This document shows, in pieces, positions 51,734 through 59,400 of a stretch of 64,000 bases of DNA. This stretch comes from Spirochaetia bacterium (GTDB taxonomy: Bacteria > Spirochaetota > Spirochaetia > SZUA-6 > Bin103). Position 1 is the stretch's first letter. Each line of letters begins with the position of its first letter. The DNA is taken from contig CBDBOV010000006.1 of the NCBI GenBank assembly GCA_965208575.1, forward strand, positions 1,440,001-1,504,000, read 5' to 3'. The position numbers were made by a program, and so were the translations under genes. Below the pieces are notes generated by a model. That model searched no databases, had not been told where the DNA came from, and saw only the letters and a program-made list of their open reading frames with translations.

Positions 51734-52932
51734 CTTGGCTCGACCTCACCGCGAGCGACCGCGACAAGATGCGGCGCGTGCTCGACCTGTTCAAGGAACG
51801 GGGAACGCTTGATGAGATGGGGCTCGGGAGCTTGCGTGACGCGCTCTCGGACGCCTTGTTTCCCGGAACCTCGTACCTGCAGACACGGTTGCGCTACATA
51901 TTGTTCATCCCGTGGATCTACCGGCGACTCGAAGGTCGGCTACGCGATCGCTCCAACGTTGCCGAGGCGGCGCGGCAGAGGGAGATTGGGCTGGTCGGCG
52001 CTCTGGAGCGTTCTCCCGAGACAGACGGCATCATCGGCGTGGTCGCCCGCGCGGCACTGGTACGGTTGCCCAGTTCGGTGTATTGGAATGCCCTTACTAC
52101 CTGGGGCATCTTTCAGCATCAGCAGAGTCAAGGTTGGTACCATTCGAACTTCGCGACGCTCGCTGGCGCTGAAAGCGTCGCCCGCGCCGACGACCCTGGA
52201 GTGGTGTGGAGTCATCAGCCGAATTGGCATCCGCGTCTGCCGGATGCGCCGGATTCGTTTCCCGGCGAGGCGTCGTTTGCATTAACTCGCGGGGAGGCGG
52301 ATTTCCTGCGCGGCCGTTTCGAGGAAAGGTGCTCCGGGACCCTGCTTGCATGGCTGGCGCGCAACGGTTCGGATACGCCCGCGGACAGTGTCTGGGACGA
52401 TCCCGACGCATTGCGCGCACCGAACGGTATTCGATGGACGGTCGAGCTGGCACGGAGGTTCTCACTGCACGTCGAAGGAATGCCGCTGCTCTACAACCTC
52501 CTCGTGGCCGAGCGCCGGAGTGACAAGCTTGGGTCGCAAGAAACCGAAACGATCGACAGATTCCGCGCGGAACTGGCCGAGTGGAGGGTGCGAGAATGCA
52601 ACGAGCCCCCGTACGAACCGGACAACTTGTGGCAGCTCCTGCACCGCACAGGTGTACGGCTGCGTTCTCCGCAACGCCTGTTCGTGGAGCGCTGGGGCCA
52701 GCGGCTCGCCGAGTTGGGTTCCGGTGCCGTTGCCGCCGACGGCTTGTTGCGGTCGCTGATCTATAACCGGGAGCTGCAACTCAAGGGGGCGCGGGCACGA
52801 CTGGCGAACGTCAACCGGTTGCTGGATTGGAAGCCGGGAGTCGGCGTGGGGCGCATGGACTTCCGCTGGGTGCGCGTCCGGCGGCTGCTGATCGACCTGC
52901 ACCGGGGCATCGGGTCCGATGCTGTCGCCTGA
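51718..52932 (+). CDS. DUF6361-like protein
   Basis: WLDL...GTLDEMGLGSLRDALSDALFPGTSYLQTRLRY and PSSVYW match my recollection of this family. Confidence 0.75.
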   Translation: MEATLTWLDLTASDRDKMRRVLDLFKERGTLDEMGLGSLRDALSDALFPGTSYLQTRLRYILFIPWIYRRLEGRLRDRSNVAEAARQREIGLVGALERSPETDGIIGVVARAALVRLPSSVYWNALTTWGIFQHQQSQGWYHSNFATLAGAESVARADDPGVVWSHQPNWHPRLPDAPDSFPGEASFALTRGEADFLRGRFEERCSGTLLAWLARNGSDTPADSVWDDPDALRAPNGIRWTVELARRFSLHVEGMPLLYNLLVAERRSDKLGSQETETIDRFRAELAEWRVRECNEPPYEPDNLWQLLHRTGVRLRSPQRLFVERWGQRLAELGSGAVAADGLLRSLIYNRELQLKGARARLANVNRLLDWKPGVGVGRMDFRWVRVRRLLIDLHRGIGSDAVA

Positions 52933-54544
52933 CGCGCGCGCGGTGGCCTTCGAGCTGATCCGTGCACCGGACGGGTACCGGCTCGACTTCGCCGTACTGA
53001 CTACCTACACACTGGACCTGGAGGCGCTGCTGGTGCTTCCGCTATCGATCCTTGCCCACCAGGACGCAAGCATGGAGGAGTTGCTCGCCGATCCGGTCCA
53101 GCTTCATCAGGCTCTGCGCGATGCAGGCGACCGGGTACACGTCTTTGTCGACCACGCCGGCATCGGAGTTCCTCGTGCCGCCCGCGCGCTGTACGCGATG
53201 CTTGAACCGAGCGTGCATGGTGTGCGGGCACCAGGCCGCGGTTCATTCCACGCCAAAGTGTGGGTCGCCCGGTTCACGGTTTCCGGCGCTGCGCAGCAGG
53301 AGCGGCCGCCCCTGCTGCGGGTCGCGGTGTTGTCTCGCAACCTGACATTCGACCGATCCTGGGACATCGCGCTCGCCAGCGAGGCATCTCCCCGTGGGAA
53401 GAGGCGCTGTGCCGCAACCCGGCCGCTCGGTTCCTTTCTCGCCGCCTTGCCAGGGCTGACCGGCACACCGTTGGAGGAGCACATAGCGGCGCGGGTACGG
53501 GCGTTGGCCGAGGACACCGGGCGGACACGGTTCCCGGCGCCAGCCGGATTTGTGGATCCGGTCGAGTTCCACGTGCTGGGCCTGTCGTCGCGTCGCCGGT
53601 CGTGGCGGCCCAGAACACAGGGATATCGCACACTGGCCATCGCGCCGTTCGTGAACCGTAGCGGGATCGAGGCTGTCGTCTCGCTCGGCGGTTCTGAGCG
53701 GGTGCTCCTGAGCCGCGGTGAGGAACTCGACAAGCTGTCCGAGGACGCGCTCGACCGTTGGAGCGAGGTGCTGGTGCTGACAGACGCGGCACAAGACGAA
53801 CCGGAGGACGGCCACGTGGGCGACCGTGAGCCGACCGGCGGCGGCGGCGCGGTCGCCGGCGGACTGCACGCCAAGATCGTCGCGGTAGAGCACGGTTGGG
53901 ATGTCACCTGGTACGTCGGATCGGCGAATCTGACCGCGGCGGCGTTCGGCGGCAGCAACGTCGAGATGATGGCCTCCGTCACCGGACGGAAGGGACGGCG
54001 GAATGGTGTGACCGGTCATGGCATCGAGCGCTTCCTCGACGGCGACAGCGGGTTCCGCAAGCTATGCGAGCCCTATTGCCGCGGCGAGCAGGAGACAGAA
54101 CCCGCCGAGGTTACCGCGGCACGCCGGCGCCTGGAGGACGCGCGCGACCATCTCGAGCAGTCCGAACTCCACGTCGTGTGCGAGAATGCCGGCGAGACTT
54201 GGTCGTTGACCCTTGACGGCCGCTTGGCGGTGCCGGAGGAGGTCGCCGTCGTGGCGTGGCCGATCTCCATCCCCGAAAGTGAAGCGCGCGCGCTCGCCCT
54301 GCCGTTGAACTGGACGTTGCCGGTCGCACGGCTGACCGCGTTCACGGCGTTCCGCCTTGCGATCCGGGTGCCCGGAGTGGACGACATCCGTATGGCGCTG
54401 CGGCTACCCGCCACGGGTATGCCGGCAGATCGGATGCATCACGTGCTCAAGAGCTATCCCACCGGCCCCTGGGCCGGCGCAGTCATGAAAGAAACAAGGG
54501 TGAGCTATAGTGTGGGCAGAGTTCTGGGTGGAGCGCGAAAGTAG

Positions 54545-54712
54545 GCCGGCGCGTCACTGGCGTTACGTTCTGCGAACCCGTTCAAGAGCTTGGCCCCGGG
54601 GCGGGTGGCGTAGTCATTGGTGAGGTTGTCAGCCGGCGCGGCCGGGTGGCGATCATCCCGTTCAGGAGAATACCTGCTACACACGCCTTGGCCGCACCAC
54701 TCAGTCGTAGCG
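54545..54712 (+). ncRNA. Predicted IS110 bridge RNA (target- and donor-binding loops); ends approximate
   Basis: CCGT-TCAAGAGCT-TGG (54582-54590 equals left target plus core); CCGT-TCAGGAG (54662-54668 equals the element's right end); G-U-rich stems. Confidence 0.75.
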
Positions 54713-54720
54713 GAGGTTTC

Positions 54721-56109
54721 ATGGCACGACGCAGACACAGACGCAAGGGCAAGGGCAGTCGCACAGCGCAACCAAAGGTGATGCACCCGGACGCTGCCGG
54801 CTTGGACATAGGCGCTACCGAGGTGTACGCGGCTGTGCGCCCGGAGCGCGACCCGGACCCGATCCGGAACTTTGCTACGTTCACCGCGGACCTGCACGCC
54901 TTGGCCGACTGGCTCAAGGAATGCGAGGTCACCACGGTGGCGATGGAGTCCACCGGTGTGTACTGGATTCCGGTGTATCAGATCCTGGAGGCACACGGCT
55001 TCGACGTGGTGCTGGTGAATGCGCGTCACGTGCACTCGGTACCCGGTCGGAAGTCCGACGTGGCCGACTGCGAGTGGTTGCGCTACCTGCACTCGGTGGG
55101 ATTGCTGCGCGGCTCATTCCGCCCTGCCGACGAGGTGTGTGCACTGCGCTCGGTGCTGCGCCATCGCGACACCTTGATCAAGATGGCGTCGCGCAGCGTG
55201 TTGCACATGCAGAAGGCGTACAGCCAGATGAACGTGCATCTGCACCATGCCATCTCTGACCTGACGGGGACGACCGGTCTGGCCATTACGGACGCTATCC
55301 TGGCGGGTGAGCGGGATCCGGCGCGGTTGGCCGCTCTGGCCGACCGGCGGATCAAAGCCAGCCGCGAGACCTTGATCAAGGCGCTGCAGGGCGACTGGCG
55401 CGCCGAGCACCTGTTGGCGTTGCGGCACGCGCGAGCGACCTATGCCCACTACCAACAACTCATCACGGAGTGCGATCAGGAAATCGAAGCCGGCATCCGC
55501 GCGTTCGAAGCCAGCAGCGAGCCACCCGGCGCGGTGGGCGACGACCCACCGGATGAGGGAATCGATGCGGAGCCCGAGGCGCCAACCGAGTCACCGGCCA
55601 AGCGGTTCGACCTGCGCGGCCACCTTACGCACCTGTTCGGCACTGACCTGACGCTGATTCCCGGCATCGGCGAAAGTACGGCGCTGGTTCTGTTCACCGA
55701 ACTCGGCCCGGAACTGTCCCGCTTTCCGACCGCACCGCAATTCGCCTCCTGGCTGCACCTGTGCCCCCACAACCAGATCACCGGCGGCAAGATCATCAGC
55801 TCGCACACCGGTCGGGGCACCAATCGGGCCGCCCAGGCGCTGCACTGGGCGACCCAGTCGTTGTACCGCAGCCCATCGGCCCTGGGCCAGCACTTCCGCC
55901 GCATGCGGGCGCGTCTGGGTACTCCCGAAGCGACCACTGCAGTCGCGCATAAACTGGCTCGGATCATCTACCATCTGATCACGCATCGCGTGGCCTACGA
56001 TGACAGCATCCTCGCCGCCGAGGAGCGCCAGGACCGGCGCCGCTTTGAACGCCGGCTCCGAAGGCAGGCACACGCACTCGGTTATGAGCTTGTCCCGGAG
56101 GCCGCCTGA
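54721..56109 (+). CDS. IS110 family DEDD recombinase/transposase
   Basis: GLDIG, AMESTGVYW, RKSDVAD, IPGIG, LCP..QITGG, AVAHKLARIIY; GGAGG RBS upstream. Confidence 0.95.
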   Translation: MARRRHRRKGKGSRTAQPKVMHPDAAGLDIGATEVYAAVRPERDPDPIRNFATFTADLHALADWLKECEVTTVAMESTGVYWIPVYQILEAHGFDVVLVNARHVHSVPGRKSDVADCEWLRYLHSVGLLRGSFRPADEVCALRSVLRHRDTLIKMASRSVLHMQKAYSQMNVHLHHAISDLTGTTGLAITDAILAGERDPARLAALADRRIKASRETLIKALQGDWRAEHLLALRHARATYAHYQQLITECDQEIEAGIRAFEASSEPPGAVGDDPPDEGIDAEPEAPTESPAKRFDLRGHLTHLFGTDLTLIPGIGESTALVLFTELGPELSRFPTAPQFASWLHLCPHNQITGGKIISSHTGRGTNRAAQALHWATQSLYRSPSALGQHFRRMRARLGTPEATTAVAHKLARIIYHLITHRVAYDDSILAAEERQDRRRFERRLRRQAHALGYELVPEAA

Positions 56110-56426
56110 TTGTTGTTTCTCAGGAGCTTGCTGGACAGCCCAGATAAGTTCCTCCGCTTCTTGCGGGCGCTGCTTGGCGGCCTGGATGGCATGGTCGAGT
56201 GGACGCGCGCCGGCGGCGAGAGCGGTGCGTGGGGTGCGGGCGTAAGCGCCGATACGTTGCTGGACGACTTGCTGCGCGCCGCATCGCGCGATCCCAGCCG
56301 CTTGCAACCGGTGCGCCGATTGATCGATGACCTCCGCAAGACGGAGGGCGGGCGCAGGATCATTCCCGACGACCTGCTGGCCGTCTGGAACGCCGTAAAC
56401 GAAGCACTGGGGAAGGCGGGCGCTGC

Positions 56427-59400
56427 ATGAACCCGCCCGATGTCGAGACGATCCTGAAACCGCTGAAGCCGTTTCAGCGCCGTACCGTCGAACACGCGTT
56501 TCACCGCTTATTCGTTGCGAAAGACAGTACTGCCCGATTTCTGGTGGCCGACGAGGTTGGCCTCGGCAAGACACTGGTGGCGCGCGGCGTAATCGCCCGA
56601 GCCGTTAAACACCTTTGGGATGACGTCGAACGCATCGACGTCGTTTACGTCTGCAGCAACAACAGTATCGCACGGGCCAATCTGCCGAAGCTTCAAGTAG
56701 GCGATGCCGGCCAACGATCGTTTGCCCTTGCCACCCGCCTCACGATGCTGGCGACACTGTTCGCTTCGCCCGATGGGCAGTCCGGTCTCGCCGGTAACAA
56801 GCTGAACTTCGTCAGTTTCACGCCGGGCACGTCGTTCAACATGGGGCGCTCCGCCGGTCAGGCGCAAGAACGACAAGTGCTGTTTCACCTTCTGCTGCCA
56901 TGCTACCCCACCCGACGGACAGCACTCATGAATCTGCTGCAGGGACGGAAGGCCAGCAAGGATGACTGGCGTCAGCAATTGCAGAACGAGCCGTGTCCTA
57001 TCGAGCCGACCATACGGGAGCGCTTTGAGGCGACGTTCCGAGAACAAGCGGATCTACATGGCGAACTGCGTTCGCTTTTCGAGATTTGGTTCTTTCGGCA
57101 TCGGCAGTCGTGGCCGAATGAAGCCCAATGCCGCAGAGATCGGATCATATCACAACTGAGACGGATGCTGGCTGACGAGTGCGTCCGCGCCCTTGAGCCC
57201 GATCTGGTAATCGTCGATGAGTTCCAGCGCTTCAAGTCGTTGCTCGAATCCCGGGTAGAACGCCAGGATCCCGCCGCGGAACTCGCTCAGAAGCTGTTCG
57301 GTGCTCGGACGTCCGACGGACAAATGGTGCGGACGCTCCTCCTCTCCGCGACGCCGTACAAGCCCTACACCGCCGACGCCGAGATCGAGCAGGACGATCA
57401 CTACGAGGACTTCCTGGACACCACCCGTTTCCTCCTGGCGGACAATGACGCCCGCGTCGCGCAGATCAAACGTCGGCTGTCCCGATTTGGCACGGCGCTG
57501 AAGCGAGCCACCATCGGCGGACAGGATCACGAAAATGGGGTTCAATGCGCCAAGCTTGGTGTGGAGGACTCGCTCCGGGCGATCATGGTCCGGACCGAGC
57601 GCGTTAGGGCCAGCACCGAGAGGGATGCCATGTTGGTCGAGCGCTGTCGCCCCGTCGTTCCCACGCCAGCAGACGTGCGCCAATACTTGGTTGCTGATCG
57701 CCTGTATCGCGCTGTGGGCGACCAGGATCCCATGCCTCTCTGGAAGTCGGCCTCGTATCTCGCTCACTTCACGCAGGGCTACCGTTTCAACGAACGGCTC
57801 GAAATGGCGCTCGATCAGTCGCCGGATCGAGTGGCCCAGGTACTGCGCCGATATGAAAGTGCCTTCCTCGACGCCGAGAAAGTCCGCGAGTGGGCGAAAC
57901 TCGATCCGGGCGCCGCGAAGTTGCGTGACTTGGTGCGCGATCTGCTCGATTCGGGGCTGTGGCGCATGCTGTGGATGCCTCCCACGGTCCCGTACTGGCC
58001 GTTGGAGGGGCCGTTCAACGGGAAGCATGCTGCCACCAAACCCTGCTGTTCTCGGCGTGGAACGTGGTGCCCGATGTCGTGAGCGCCATTCTCAGCTACG
58101 AGGCGGAACGGCGGATGGTCGGCGGGAGGATCGCCTCGTACGAGAATCCTGCGGACCAGCAGAGGCCCTTGCTGCGGCTCACGCAGTCGACCTCCGGTGC
58201 GAGATCCCGACATCGTTTGCTTTTGCTGCTCATACCATGCCTACCGCTGGCTGATCGCGCACATCCCCTTGCAGGGCCAGACGGACTGGACCGGAGAGTT
58301 TGGGTGCGTGCCAGAGTAGAAGAGTTGTTGACAGACCCGACAATACCGGATCCCCAGGATGGAACCGTGGACGATCGGTGGGAATGGGCAGCGCCCCTAC
58401 TGCTGGATGAGGAATTGCGCGAGTTTCTGCGCATCTGGAGGAATGACGACACTCTGCATCCGCATCGCGAGGTGTTCACGGCATACATCGACGATTTACT
58501 TGCCATCGAACCGAATGATCTAGGCCGTCGGCCGCCACACCTTGCAGACTTGCTGACGGAGGTCGCTCTCGGCTCTCCGGCAATCCTTGCGTCGCGCTGC
58601 CTGGCCGCGTCCGTTGGTGTCAGCGCCGGCTTGCGCCGCCGACTCGCAGTGAAAGTCTCCCTTGCGTTTTGGACCCTGTTCAATCAACCCGCTGTTGTCT
58701 GTCTGCTCCGTCAACTCGCCGTCGGCGCCGCAGGGGATAGCGATGAGTCCGTATACTGGCGGCTGGTGCTCCGTTATTGCCGGCATGGCAACCTGCAGGC
58801 CGTGCTGGACGAGCACTGGCACCTGCTGTGGGAGCAGTGCGCGTGGTCCGAGCGCGAGACGCCCGGCGAGATCGCGGAGTTGTGCGCGTGTGAACTGGTC
58901 AACGCTGTCCGTCCCATCCGGTCACGGGTTCACGCGCGCTTTTTCCGACTTCGCAATTGCTCACATCCCGTGCCAGAAGAAATTCGGTTTCGCACGATTT
59001 TCGCCCTGCGATTTGGCCACGGTCGCAATGAGGAAGCCGGCTATGTAAGCCAGGATGCAGTGCGGAGAGCTTTCAACAGCCCGTTCCGGCCGTTTGTTCT
59101 CGCCAGCACTTCCATTGGGCAAGAGGGACTCGACTTTCATCCTTGGTGTCACCGCGTGGTGCACTGGAATCTGCCCGGCAATCCCGTCGACCTGGAACAG
59201 CGGGAGGGCCGCGTACACCGCTACAAGGGGCACGCGGTGCGGCGCAACATCGCAGCCGTCTACGCCAGCGACGCGATGCGAACCTGGTGTCTTGGCGACG
59301 CTCTCTGGGAGTTGATTTTCGAGCGCGCCGAAGAAGAGGCCCGGACCAACGGCGAGAACGACCTCGTTCCTCTGTGGATCGCACCAGGCCCGCACCGTGT

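Follow-up and report, generated by a model that had tools for sequence, protein, structure and literature searches.

The stretch analyzed here, positions 1,440,001 to 1,504,000 of Spirochaetia bacterium contig CBDBOV010000006.1 (64,000 nucleotides, "the window"), carries an inserted element at positions 54454 to 56126 on the + strand. With high probability, this element is best explained as a 15-copy transposon of the IS110 family, the + strand of its left end being read as a bridge RNA that forms a three-way junction and guides insertion. The basis of this explanation is the copy number, the junctions, the empty sites, the agreement of guides and flanks, and covariation in the fold. Production of the RNA, its binding by the recombinase, the strand and site of cutting, and the role of one guide, the right-donor guide, are inferred.

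According to the proposed mechanism, the + strand of the non-coding left end would correspond to a bridge RNA about 180 nt long (54524 to 54704). A closing stem, P0, would hold two stem-loops, P1 and P2, each with an internal loop carrying a central hairpin (H1 and H2). Each loop would contain, on its 5' side, a guide pairing with the top strand right of the crossover, namely, the right-target guide (RTG; 54550 to 54555) and a candidate right-donor guide (RDG; 54604 to 54613). The 3' side would contain a 7-nt guide in the sense of the DNA left of the crossover, the left-target guide (LTG) UCAAGAG or the left-donor guide (LDG) UCAGGAG, both of which would pair with the bottom strand, by analogy with IS621. 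The element would enter as CT...GAG straight behind TCAAGAG, with no duplication.

Copies, junctions, and empty sites of the element

The window genome (6.5 Mb, 67% G+C) contained 21 matches to the element, 15 of them full-length at 100% identity and 6 partial or diverged. Other copies at unrelated sites had been named as an outcome refuting the first-pass annotation, which was made from the letters of the window; all 14 independent copies were located behind TCAAGAG, with TCAAGAG-CT preceding ATCCC in each case. In the window copy, this left target (LT; 54447 to 54453) equals the guide at 54582 to 54588, and the left flank reads ...GTGCTCAAGAG-CT (54447 to 54455). The element begins with the right donor (RD) CTATCCCACC (54454 to 54463), the first two letters of which, CT, recur after the LTG in the RNA. 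It closes in ...GTTTCTCAGGAG, with the left donor (LD) TCAGGAG (56120 to 56126) as the right terminus. The right end of the window copy reads ...TTTCTCAGGAG-CT-TGCTGG (56120 to 56134), and the right target (RT) CTTGCTGG (56127 to 56134) pairs at 7 of 8 positions with 54546 to 54553 when aligned by hand.

The 15th copy is the downstream member of a head-to-tail tandem (L003/L011, contig C4, about 1265899 to 1269242). Its junction, TCAGGAG-CT-ATCCC, is the circle junction that had been predicted from the window and is present here naturally. Since donor arm and target 7-mer differ at a single base, the tandem is consistent with insertion next to a right end already in place. Relatives, too, have tandem or nested copies of this kind (L085 and L131). 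Among the 15 copies, the dinucleotide following TCAGGAG was CT in 3 cases (one of them the tandem junction), CG in 5, TG in 3, and CA, CC, AC, or GA in one each.

Empty sites in relatives were used to position the boundaries. In the following, a slash marks the point of insertion. In same-genus relatives, the empty sites of copies L014 (...GTGACTCAAGAG/TGTCCTGC) and L013 (...TTCCTCAAGAG/TGAGGATC) joined TCAAGAG straight to TG, and that of L005 read ...CTCAAGAG/CGTCTACA in one same-genus relative and .../CGTGTACA in a second, with CG after TCAAGAG. The L007 site was uninterrupted in two relatives, with no CT before CAGCC... or CAACC..., the 7-mer there being TCAGGAG or TCAACAG. For L015, no usable match to an empty site was present in five relatives. 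In total, CT was missing at 4 of the 5 readable empty sites. These sites indicate that the inserted DNA is CTATCCC...TCAGGAG, 1,673 bp, located directly behind TCAAGAG without target duplication.

The empty site of the window copy had been read correctly before, and its reconstruction restores a single reading frame (HVLKS/LLDSPDK). Continuity of the open reading frame (ORF) as a test of empty-site models cannot separate loss of the left CT from loss of the right dinucleotide, which are of equal length, and was replaced by the real empty sites. The strings listed in the first-pass annotation were all in place: TCAAGAGCT at 54582 to 54590 and TCAGGAG at 54662 to 54668, both after CCGT, GCGTAG at 54609 to 54614, CGTAG at 54706 to 54710, and GGCCCCGGGGC at 54592 to 54602. 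The window contained TCAAGAGCT twice versus 0.14 occurrences expected and CCCGTTCARGAG twice versus 0.03 expected; none of 100 shuffles gave two occurrences of TCAAGAGCT, and the outcome for CCCGTTCARGAG was likewise 0 of 100 shuffles.

The recombinase gene (54721 to 56109, + strand, 462 amino acids) is preceded by GGAGG at 54712 to 54716, and the non-coding ends comprise 267 bp on the left and 17 bp between the stop codon and the right terminus. The assignment to the IS110 family, already proposed, was borne out by Pfam matches to PF01548 (DEDD_Tnp_IS110; 6.4e-20, residues 26 to 166) and PF02371 (Transposase_20; 1.5e-11, residues 310 to 385) and by NCBIfam NF033542, "IS110 family RNA-guided transposase," with 251 bits versus a cutoff of 140. 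The protein has the DEDD (RuvC-like) N-terminal domain and the Tnp C-terminal domain of this family, and the insertions are site specific, without target duplication or terminal inverted repeats, the latter being absent among the 25 longest inverted pairs. By sequence, IS621 (8wt6; E = 1.3e-7) was the sole relative among solved structures. Among 8,000 candidates scored, at least 7,993 homologous proteins had an E value of ≤1e-20; their names were uninformative and did not tie the element to any named insertion sequence.

A subterminal inverted repeat was read by eye, with AGAAACAA at 54490 to 54497 as the left arm, 36 bp from the left terminus, and TTGTTTCT at 56113 to 56120 as its partner. 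At 8 bp, it is shorter than the 11- to 13-bp repeats of IS1111-type elements. By eye, the two arms shift in step among relatives (GTTCCTT/AAGGAAC and GTGTTTCTT/AAGAAACAC). The window genome also contains fragments of the element (L016/L018, C2:51409-51817) beside copy L010 and two solo stretches similar to the first 45 nt of the left end (L020 and L021 on C1).

Left-hand guides and fold of the left end

Relatives were collected by a protein-pattern scan with one genome per species. This yielded 52 loci with 42 to 69% amino acid identity, mostly from Acidobacteriota assemblies, 30 of which were aligned. Excluded were partial loci (L069 to L083), loci lacking upstream sequence (L049 and L050), a disrupted left end (L054), and near-duplicates (L035, L036, L062, L063, and L068). 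The rows nearest to the window were one column out of register in P0, and a second alignment was therefore built from 12 closer relatives in same-family genomes, found by DNA search. For permutation of guides against flanks, 27 of the 30 loci were used, since the left flank of L064 and the right flank of L038 were cut (the former by a contig end) and the right end of L051 was not found; the left boundaries of L032 and L040 were set by hand.

The proposal that the non-coding left end holds a left-target guide TCAAGAG (54582 to 54588, followed by CU up to 54590, as at the start of the element) and a left-donor guide TCAGGAG (54662 to 54668, identical to the last seven letters of the element) held in this family. 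A comparison of 54582 to 54590 with the flanks of other copies and homologs had been suggested as a check. The LTG agreed with LT at 3.85 of 5 variable positions versus 2.24 when permuted, and the LDG with LD at 5.00 of 5 versus 3.97; neither value was reached in 5,000 permutations, figures that overstate independence because the loci are kin, a reservation to be set against the proposed guides. All cross-pairings (LTG with LD, LDG with LT, RTG with RD, RDG with RT, and the two letters after the LTG or LDG with the first two of RT or RD, respectively) were at chance. The LDG equaled the last letters of the element at 7 of 7 positions in 29 of the 30 related loci.

An element in relative G020, from another genus of the same family, has the guide UGUCAAG and replicates the main points independently. 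TGTCAAG was found at 16 of its 19 left junctions, with one mismatch at the other three. CT followed the left 7-mer at all 19 left junctions and was present at 3 of 14 readable right junctions. A decayed paralog in the window genome (L017, C4:146529-147225, 74% identical) also has the guide UGUCAAG, with TGTCAAG as its flank.

The predicted bridge RNA fold spans about 181 nt (54524 to 54704, + strand), from the 5' strand of P0 (54524 to 54535) to its 3' strand (54693 to 54704), with 11 of 12 positions pairing in the window copy when aligned by hand. In P1, GGCCGG (54544 to 54549) pairs with UUGGCC (54590 to 54595) and closes the target loop around RTG, H1, and LTG; in P2, CCGGGGCG (54596 to 54603) pairs with CGCCUUGG (54684 to 54691) and closes the donor loop around RDG, H2, and LDG. 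The first half of the scaffold is composed of P0 5', P1 5', a variable stretch, CAyUGGyG, a hairpin, CCCG, a variable 7- or 8-mer ending in AG, one base, and P1 3'. The second half comprises P2 5', a second variable stretch, CAUUGGUGA, a hairpin, yCCG, a second 7-mer ending in AG, about 15 nt, P2 3', and P0 3'. The GCCCC/GGGGC repeat that had been taken for a local hairpin is divided between P1 3' (54590 to 54595) and P2 5' (54596 to 54603). CAyUGGUG (54555 to 54562) and CAUUGGUGA (54615 to 54623) were considered as the two strands of one stem and discarded, since each pairs locally with its own CCCG.

The three-way junction of P0, P1, and P2 is supported by covariation in the aligned relatives. 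For P0, P1, P2, and H2 together, 83.2% of the cells in the 30-row alignment form standard pairs versus 75.5% in shuffled alignments, with a covariation score of 0.287 versus 0.187 (0 of 500 shuffles in both cases), and at most 47% pair when the partners are slid by one to three columns. In the 12-row alignment, 90.0% pair versus 86.3% when shuffled (0 of 500), and the slid controls reach at most 52%. In the 30 rows, P1 is paired in 96% of the cells, with 4 of 6 pairs changed on both sides, P2 in 79% (6 of 8 pairs), and H2 (54618 to 54660) in 95% (4 of 7 pairs). In the 12 rows, the values are 97% for P1, 91% for P2, 96% for H2 (3 of 9 pairs changed on both sides), and 82% for P0 (four pairs changed on both sides). 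H1 (54558 to 54580) has a UGG...CCG base with three base pairs invariant in 12 of 12 rows, which is conservation without covariation. Four column pairs of the 12-row alignment, (37,86), (47,75), (113,158), and (117,154), are G.U in all 12 rows; such pairs form only in + strand RNA, in agreement with the orientation that had been suggested by stems rich in G-U. The left end has the features of a structured non-coding RNA with guides covarying with target and donor.

Conservation of the scaffold also bears on a second explanation, by which the left end is a mere structured 5' leader controlling expression of the transposase, the 7-mers being recognized by protein or relics of recombination. In the minimum-energy fold, 54674 to 54680 can pair with 54707 to 54713, overlapping the ribosome-binding site, as a leader might, and transcription and RNA binding of the bridge RNA are deduced here. 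Both 7-mers change with their own flanks over the 27 loci while the scaffold is conserved, and relics would not track new targets. In addition, the protein belongs to a family named for RNA-guided transposition, and preferences left of the 7-mer (see below), while consistent with a protein contact in addition, do not stand in for the guide. A leader function in place of a guide function is very improbable.

Proposed core dinucleotide and right-hand guides, and target choice

For the bridge RNA, the first-pass annotation had assumed a CT core shared by donor and target, as in IS621. CT was found at only 3 of the 15 right junctions and not at the other 12, was missing at most of the empty sites (see above), and was not enriched after TCAAGAG at used sites (2 of 14 versus 8.5% of all sites, p = 0.33); 26 unoccupied TCAAGAGCT sites remain in the window genome. 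CT arrives with the element rather than being a shared core. Both 7-mer guides end in AG in 30 of 30 rows, and this is the only dinucleotide common to the left flank and the right end in every lineage, for instance, TCAAG-AG/TCAGG-AG and TGTCA-AG/TAAGG-AG. This indicates a fixed crossover at or just after AG, and the simplest reading is an AG core with the crossover directly after it.

The two letters following AG in the LTG are the first two letters of the element, and both change together (CT, TC, TT, and CG). They agreed at 1.96 of 2 positions versus 1.51 when permuted (0 of 5,000) and, in the nine loci nearer to the window, at 1.89 versus 0.90 (p = 2e-4). By strict match, the two letters after the LDG agreed with the first two of the right flank at 1.07 versus 0.64 positions (0 of 5,000); in the element of the window itself, they do not match, being AA versus mostly pyrimidine-G.

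A covariation of this kind would also be expected from a core and leads to an alternative that keeps the IS621 register. In this case, the guide would be composed of LT (seven letters) plus the core (two), CT would be the core, and sites with other dinucleotides would be core-mismatched "off-targets." The top strand would be cut after CT, as given for IS621 in PMC11208158, the bottom strand four bases to the left, and the bottom strand, or repair in its favor, would be the source of the fixed products. In PMC11208160, the LTG of IS621 is described with a 7+2 length, which the 9-mer UCAAGAGCU shares. A bottom-strand cut left of positions 6 and 7, as stated for IS621 in PMC11208158, would yield exactly the observed junctions if its numbering maps to the top strand in the way deduced here, and a report on IS621 describes half-site insertion (10.64898/2026.08.31.748434). 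Against this register stand the lack of CT enrichment at used sites despite the many unoccupied ones and a distant subgroup of 18 loci, most of which have AAG-CG at the left junction and GAG-TC at the right one (all 18 starting with T), so that donor and target never share the dinucleotide. Moreover, in all 12 non-CT copies, CT stands at the left junction and is missing from the right one. This demands that the strand bias be complete and the reverse of the one reported for CazIS110-1, which favors the top strand (10.1101/2025.10.25.684509). Since the IS621 register would place the target's dinucleotide on the left of top-strand products and the 12 non-CT copies show the reverse, an AG core is simpler, and the register of IS621 is regarded as unlikely.

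In addition to an AG core, a more extended joint reading may be considered, although it has somewhat less than an even chance of being correct. The element would belong to a clade with long transposases, possibly the subgroup of IS110 itself, the loops of its left-end RNA would be circularly permuted with respect to IS621 (RTG, then LTG), AG would be the core, and the 9-mers would read product junctions, the LTG being composed of the seven letters of LT plus the first two nucleotides of the element and the LDG of the seven letters of LD plus the first two of the right flank. If true, this would be a "handshake" on the side of the bottom strand, a mirror image of the handshake guides of IS621, and would explain natural insertion by the left half-site only.

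The RTG (CGCGUC, 54550 to 54555) is located on the 5' side of the target loop, and in relatives, the columns homologous to it pair with the right flank, at 3.85 of 5 positions versus 2.66 when permuted (0 of 5,000, 27 loci) and, in the 18 loci of the distant subgroup, at 4.67 versus 3.94 (p = 4e-4), for instance, GCCGAC with G/TCGGC, GGGGAC with G/TCCCC, and GGCGAC with G/TCGCT. In the element of G003, with the RTG CGAUG-C, CATC was among the first seven right-flank bases at three of five sites. These columns pair with the right flank and precede the LTG, so the guide binding the top strand should lie 5' of that binding the bottom strand, opposite to the IS621-like layout that had been assumed for the loops. 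The order of guides is that defined for IS1111-type RNAs in PMC11187229, with the top-strand complement 5' of the bottom-strand complement.

The candidate RDG GGUGGCGUAG (54604 to 54613) is the best complement of CTATCCCACC in the left end, at 9 of 10 positions (one pair a wobble, the tenth position a mismatch; P = 4e-4 for a fixed location and 0.12 anywhere in a shuffled left end). It contains GCGTAG, which had been taken for the right-target guide; this hexamer belongs to the donor loop, where it sits on the 5' side and may pair with the element's own left end. CGTAG (54706 to 54710), formerly the right-donor guide, lies 3' of P0 and outside the fold. An RDG in the register homologous to the RTG, as well as the best local match of RDG and RD, gave no family signal. 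As an RTG, GGUGAGG (54620 to 54626) pairing with CT-TCAC was rejected because these bases are part of CAUUGGUGA, a conserved motif at the foot of H2. CTTGCTGGA is a run of nine bases found after the right ends of two different elements in two genera, at 56127 to 56135 in the window and at L091 of G020; the surrounding sequences are not homologous, the alignment (74.6%) being confined to the element, and the RTG CGCGUC is common to both. This may be a favored right arm or a coincidence.

Removal of the copies in silico left 331 TCAAGAG sites in the window genome, 14 used and 317 free. Counted from the T of TCAAGAG and with p values uncorrected for 112 tests, used sites were enriched in C at -1 (11/14, p = 2e-4), T at -4 (8/14, p = 3e-4), A at -6 (11/14, p = 3e-4), T at -8 (7/14, p = 8e-4), and G at +2 (8/14). 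A pyrimidine followed by G at +1 and +2 was present at 8 of 14 used sites versus 24% (p = 0.007), and at most two of the 14 can offer a well-pairing right arm. Within positions -9 to -1, T at -3 was also preferred. In the window genome, it is almost entirely the left half-site (roughly A..TT.C-TCAAGAG) that governs target choice, and the right preference is weak. No RNA segment accounted for the preferences upstream of TCAAGAG, which resemble the donor GTTTC before TCAGGAG (GTTyC is kept in nearly all relatives) and suggest a protein contact common to both loops.

Other sites illustrate the same choice. Eleven sites in the window genome (for instance, C4:499963 and C6:1381513) are paralogous genes of about 1.6 kb with 80 to 86% identity and carry TCAAGAG-CT-TCACGG, a conserved N-terminal coding motif of this family, which, judged by its N-terminal sequence, may be one of Opp/Dpp-type ABC permeases; only one member (L002) is occupied. 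At L116 (G020) and L129 (G014), the right flank CTTGGTCCCGAGGC is the RNA gene's own sequence after the LTG; here, an element is inserted into the guide of another copy, a guide that repeats the target in the sense orientation. Such a hit is absent from all 15 copies in the window genome. In the distant subgroup (L034 to L067, Acidobacteriota), the elements insert into an imperfect palindrome, for instance, GGATCGGTACCGACAAG/TCGG-CTTATCAGGACCGATCC, at the 5' edge of the loop, and an unoccupied copy of this site lies upstream in L037. Targeting of repetitive extragenic palindromes (REPs) is known for some IS110-family elements, and the insertion into palindromes recalls it.

The window copy itself interrupts a long ORF in frame (52919 to 54453 and 56127 to 58082). 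This ORF has weak matches to phospholipase-D-type anti-phage proteins (DrmC, 0.0015), and the next ORF is helicase-like (DpdE, 2e-9; phospholipD_antiphage, 6e-5; DEAD, 4e-4), all of them below curated cutoffs. A gene of the defense type may have been knocked out by the window copy. At the left junction, AGCTATCCCACCG (54452 to 54464) is complementary at 12 of 13 positions to CGGTGGGATTGCT in the transposase ORF (55094 to 55106), probably by chance.

Signals for expression of the RNA include a candidate -10 box, TATAGT (54506 to 54511), recognized by eye, with a similar A/T hexamer at the same place in relatives. A sponge metatranscriptome library contained a 540-nt contig from 54500 into the gene, a variant with 18 substitutions. 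Five of these were in the fold, including two in the LTG (TCAAGAG to TTAGGAG), while the LDG, P1, and P2 were unchanged. As judged from its sequence, this contig would fit natural retargeting and a transcript start near 54500.

Evaluation of the bridge RNA needs to consider several results that weigh against it. A contig from an RNA library cannot exclude a DNA template or show the start of a transcript, and a raw-read RNA run (X23) gave 0 reads and hence no test of transcription either way. A strict sigma-70 promoter scan and an intrinsic terminator scan returned 0 sites each. Folded as a single sequence, the 265-nt left end was no better than shuffles (z = -0.17), which was found for both strands, and the comparative structure was used instead. 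Rfam gave no match at E values up to 10. For the RTG, the agreement with RT in the nine loci nearest to the window was 2.22 versus 1.93 (p = 0.18), so that the signal comes mainly from the distant subgroup. The best-fitting register in the window genome (RT1 with G54553, p = 0.004, uncorrected for 18 tests) differs from the homologous one, and G020, with an identical RTG, has a different right-flank bias. The RDG had no family support over the 27 loci (1.04 versus 1.22; best local 7-mer, 5.74 versus 5.74). Finally, the empty site of L008 in a relative (L138 of G005, with flanks 98% identical on the left and 84% on the right) has CT, TCAAGAG-CT-TCGTCGG, versus TCAGGAG-CC-TCGTCGG at the occupied right junction in the window genome. 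The single T-to-C difference exactly at the junction could be a polymorphism or a footprint of recombination.

Comparison with known systems and meaning

Bridge recombinases are under development as programmable tools for DNA insertion, and mechanistic work has been done almost entirely on IS621 and its close kin. With 15 identical copies, the element is evidently recent and probably active, as judged from the genome, and its natural insertion record, 14 sites here plus 19 for the relative, is an unbiased profile of specificity, characterized by a 7-nt left guide, no need for the IS621 "core" dinucleotide, and almost no constraint on the right arm. This shows that, when guides are read on the model of IS621, the core and the right-hand guides may be put in the wrong place; the natural half-site targeting bears on the risk of off-target insertion. 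If the permuted loop and the junction-reading 9-mers hold, the design space would be wider.

As described for IS621 (PMC11208160 and PMC11208158), the predicted RNA of about 180 nt is located in a long left end upstream of a recombinase with DEDD and Tnp domains and has two internal loops, for target and donor. In each loop, the longer guide has the left arm's sense and the shorter one is the complement of the right arm; the target is not duplicated, and the donor is the junction of the left and right ends. Unlike IS621, the loops of which present the LTG and then the RTG (Durrant et al. 2024, PMC11208160), the order of guides per loop is reversed, and a closing stem ties both stem-loops into a three-way junction. 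Donor and target have AG rather than CT in common, and the two letters after AG are supplied by the donor alone. In nature, there is hardly any constraint on the right target, and the protein, with 462 versus 326 to 328 amino acids, is distant.

Sufficiency of one arm, in this case the left target, has also been reported, in vitro and among off-target insertions, for half-match recombination by IS621 and top-strand insertion by CazIS110-1 (10.64898/2026.08.31.748434 and 10.1101/2025.10.25.684509). In these reports, the CT core is kept and the route is a minor one, whereas half-site insertion is the rule here.

As stated by Siddiquee et al. 2024 (PMC11187229), IS1111-type RNAs carry the top-strand complement ahead of the bottom-strand one, whereas the IS110-type ISEc21 has it in second place. 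With the IS1111-type seekRNAs described there (ISEc11, ISPa11, and ISKpn4), the RNA predicted here shares the top-strand complement 5' of the bottom-strand complement and the element a subterminal inverted repeat involving the right end. Their RNAs lie downstream of the gene for the transposase and not upstream as here, although exceptions in the placement of the non-coding region are noted in the same source; their repeats are 11 to 13 bp long and positioned 7 bp and 3 bp from the ends, compared to 8 bp with the left arm 36 bp inside; and their transposases have 330 to 350 amino acids. The 462 residues found here are near the range of 395 to 455 given in that source for the subgroup containing IS110 itself.

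Bridge RNAs have been predicted for most IS110 elements (Durrant et al. 2024; Hiraizumi et al. 2024), and RNAs deviating from that of IS621 have been cataloged at scale in 86 covariance models in 2026 (10.64898/2026.10.21.760802). The RNA proposed for the window is of a known kind, and given this catalog, its architecture is not claimed as new. As predicted from the sequences compared, the element has variant bridge-RNA architecture and is probably an active RNA-guided transposon of the IS110 family, with an upstream RNA as in the IS110 type but the guide order of the IS1111 type. It represents a testable variant, for which a permuted order, an AG core, and 9-mers reading the junctions are proposed.

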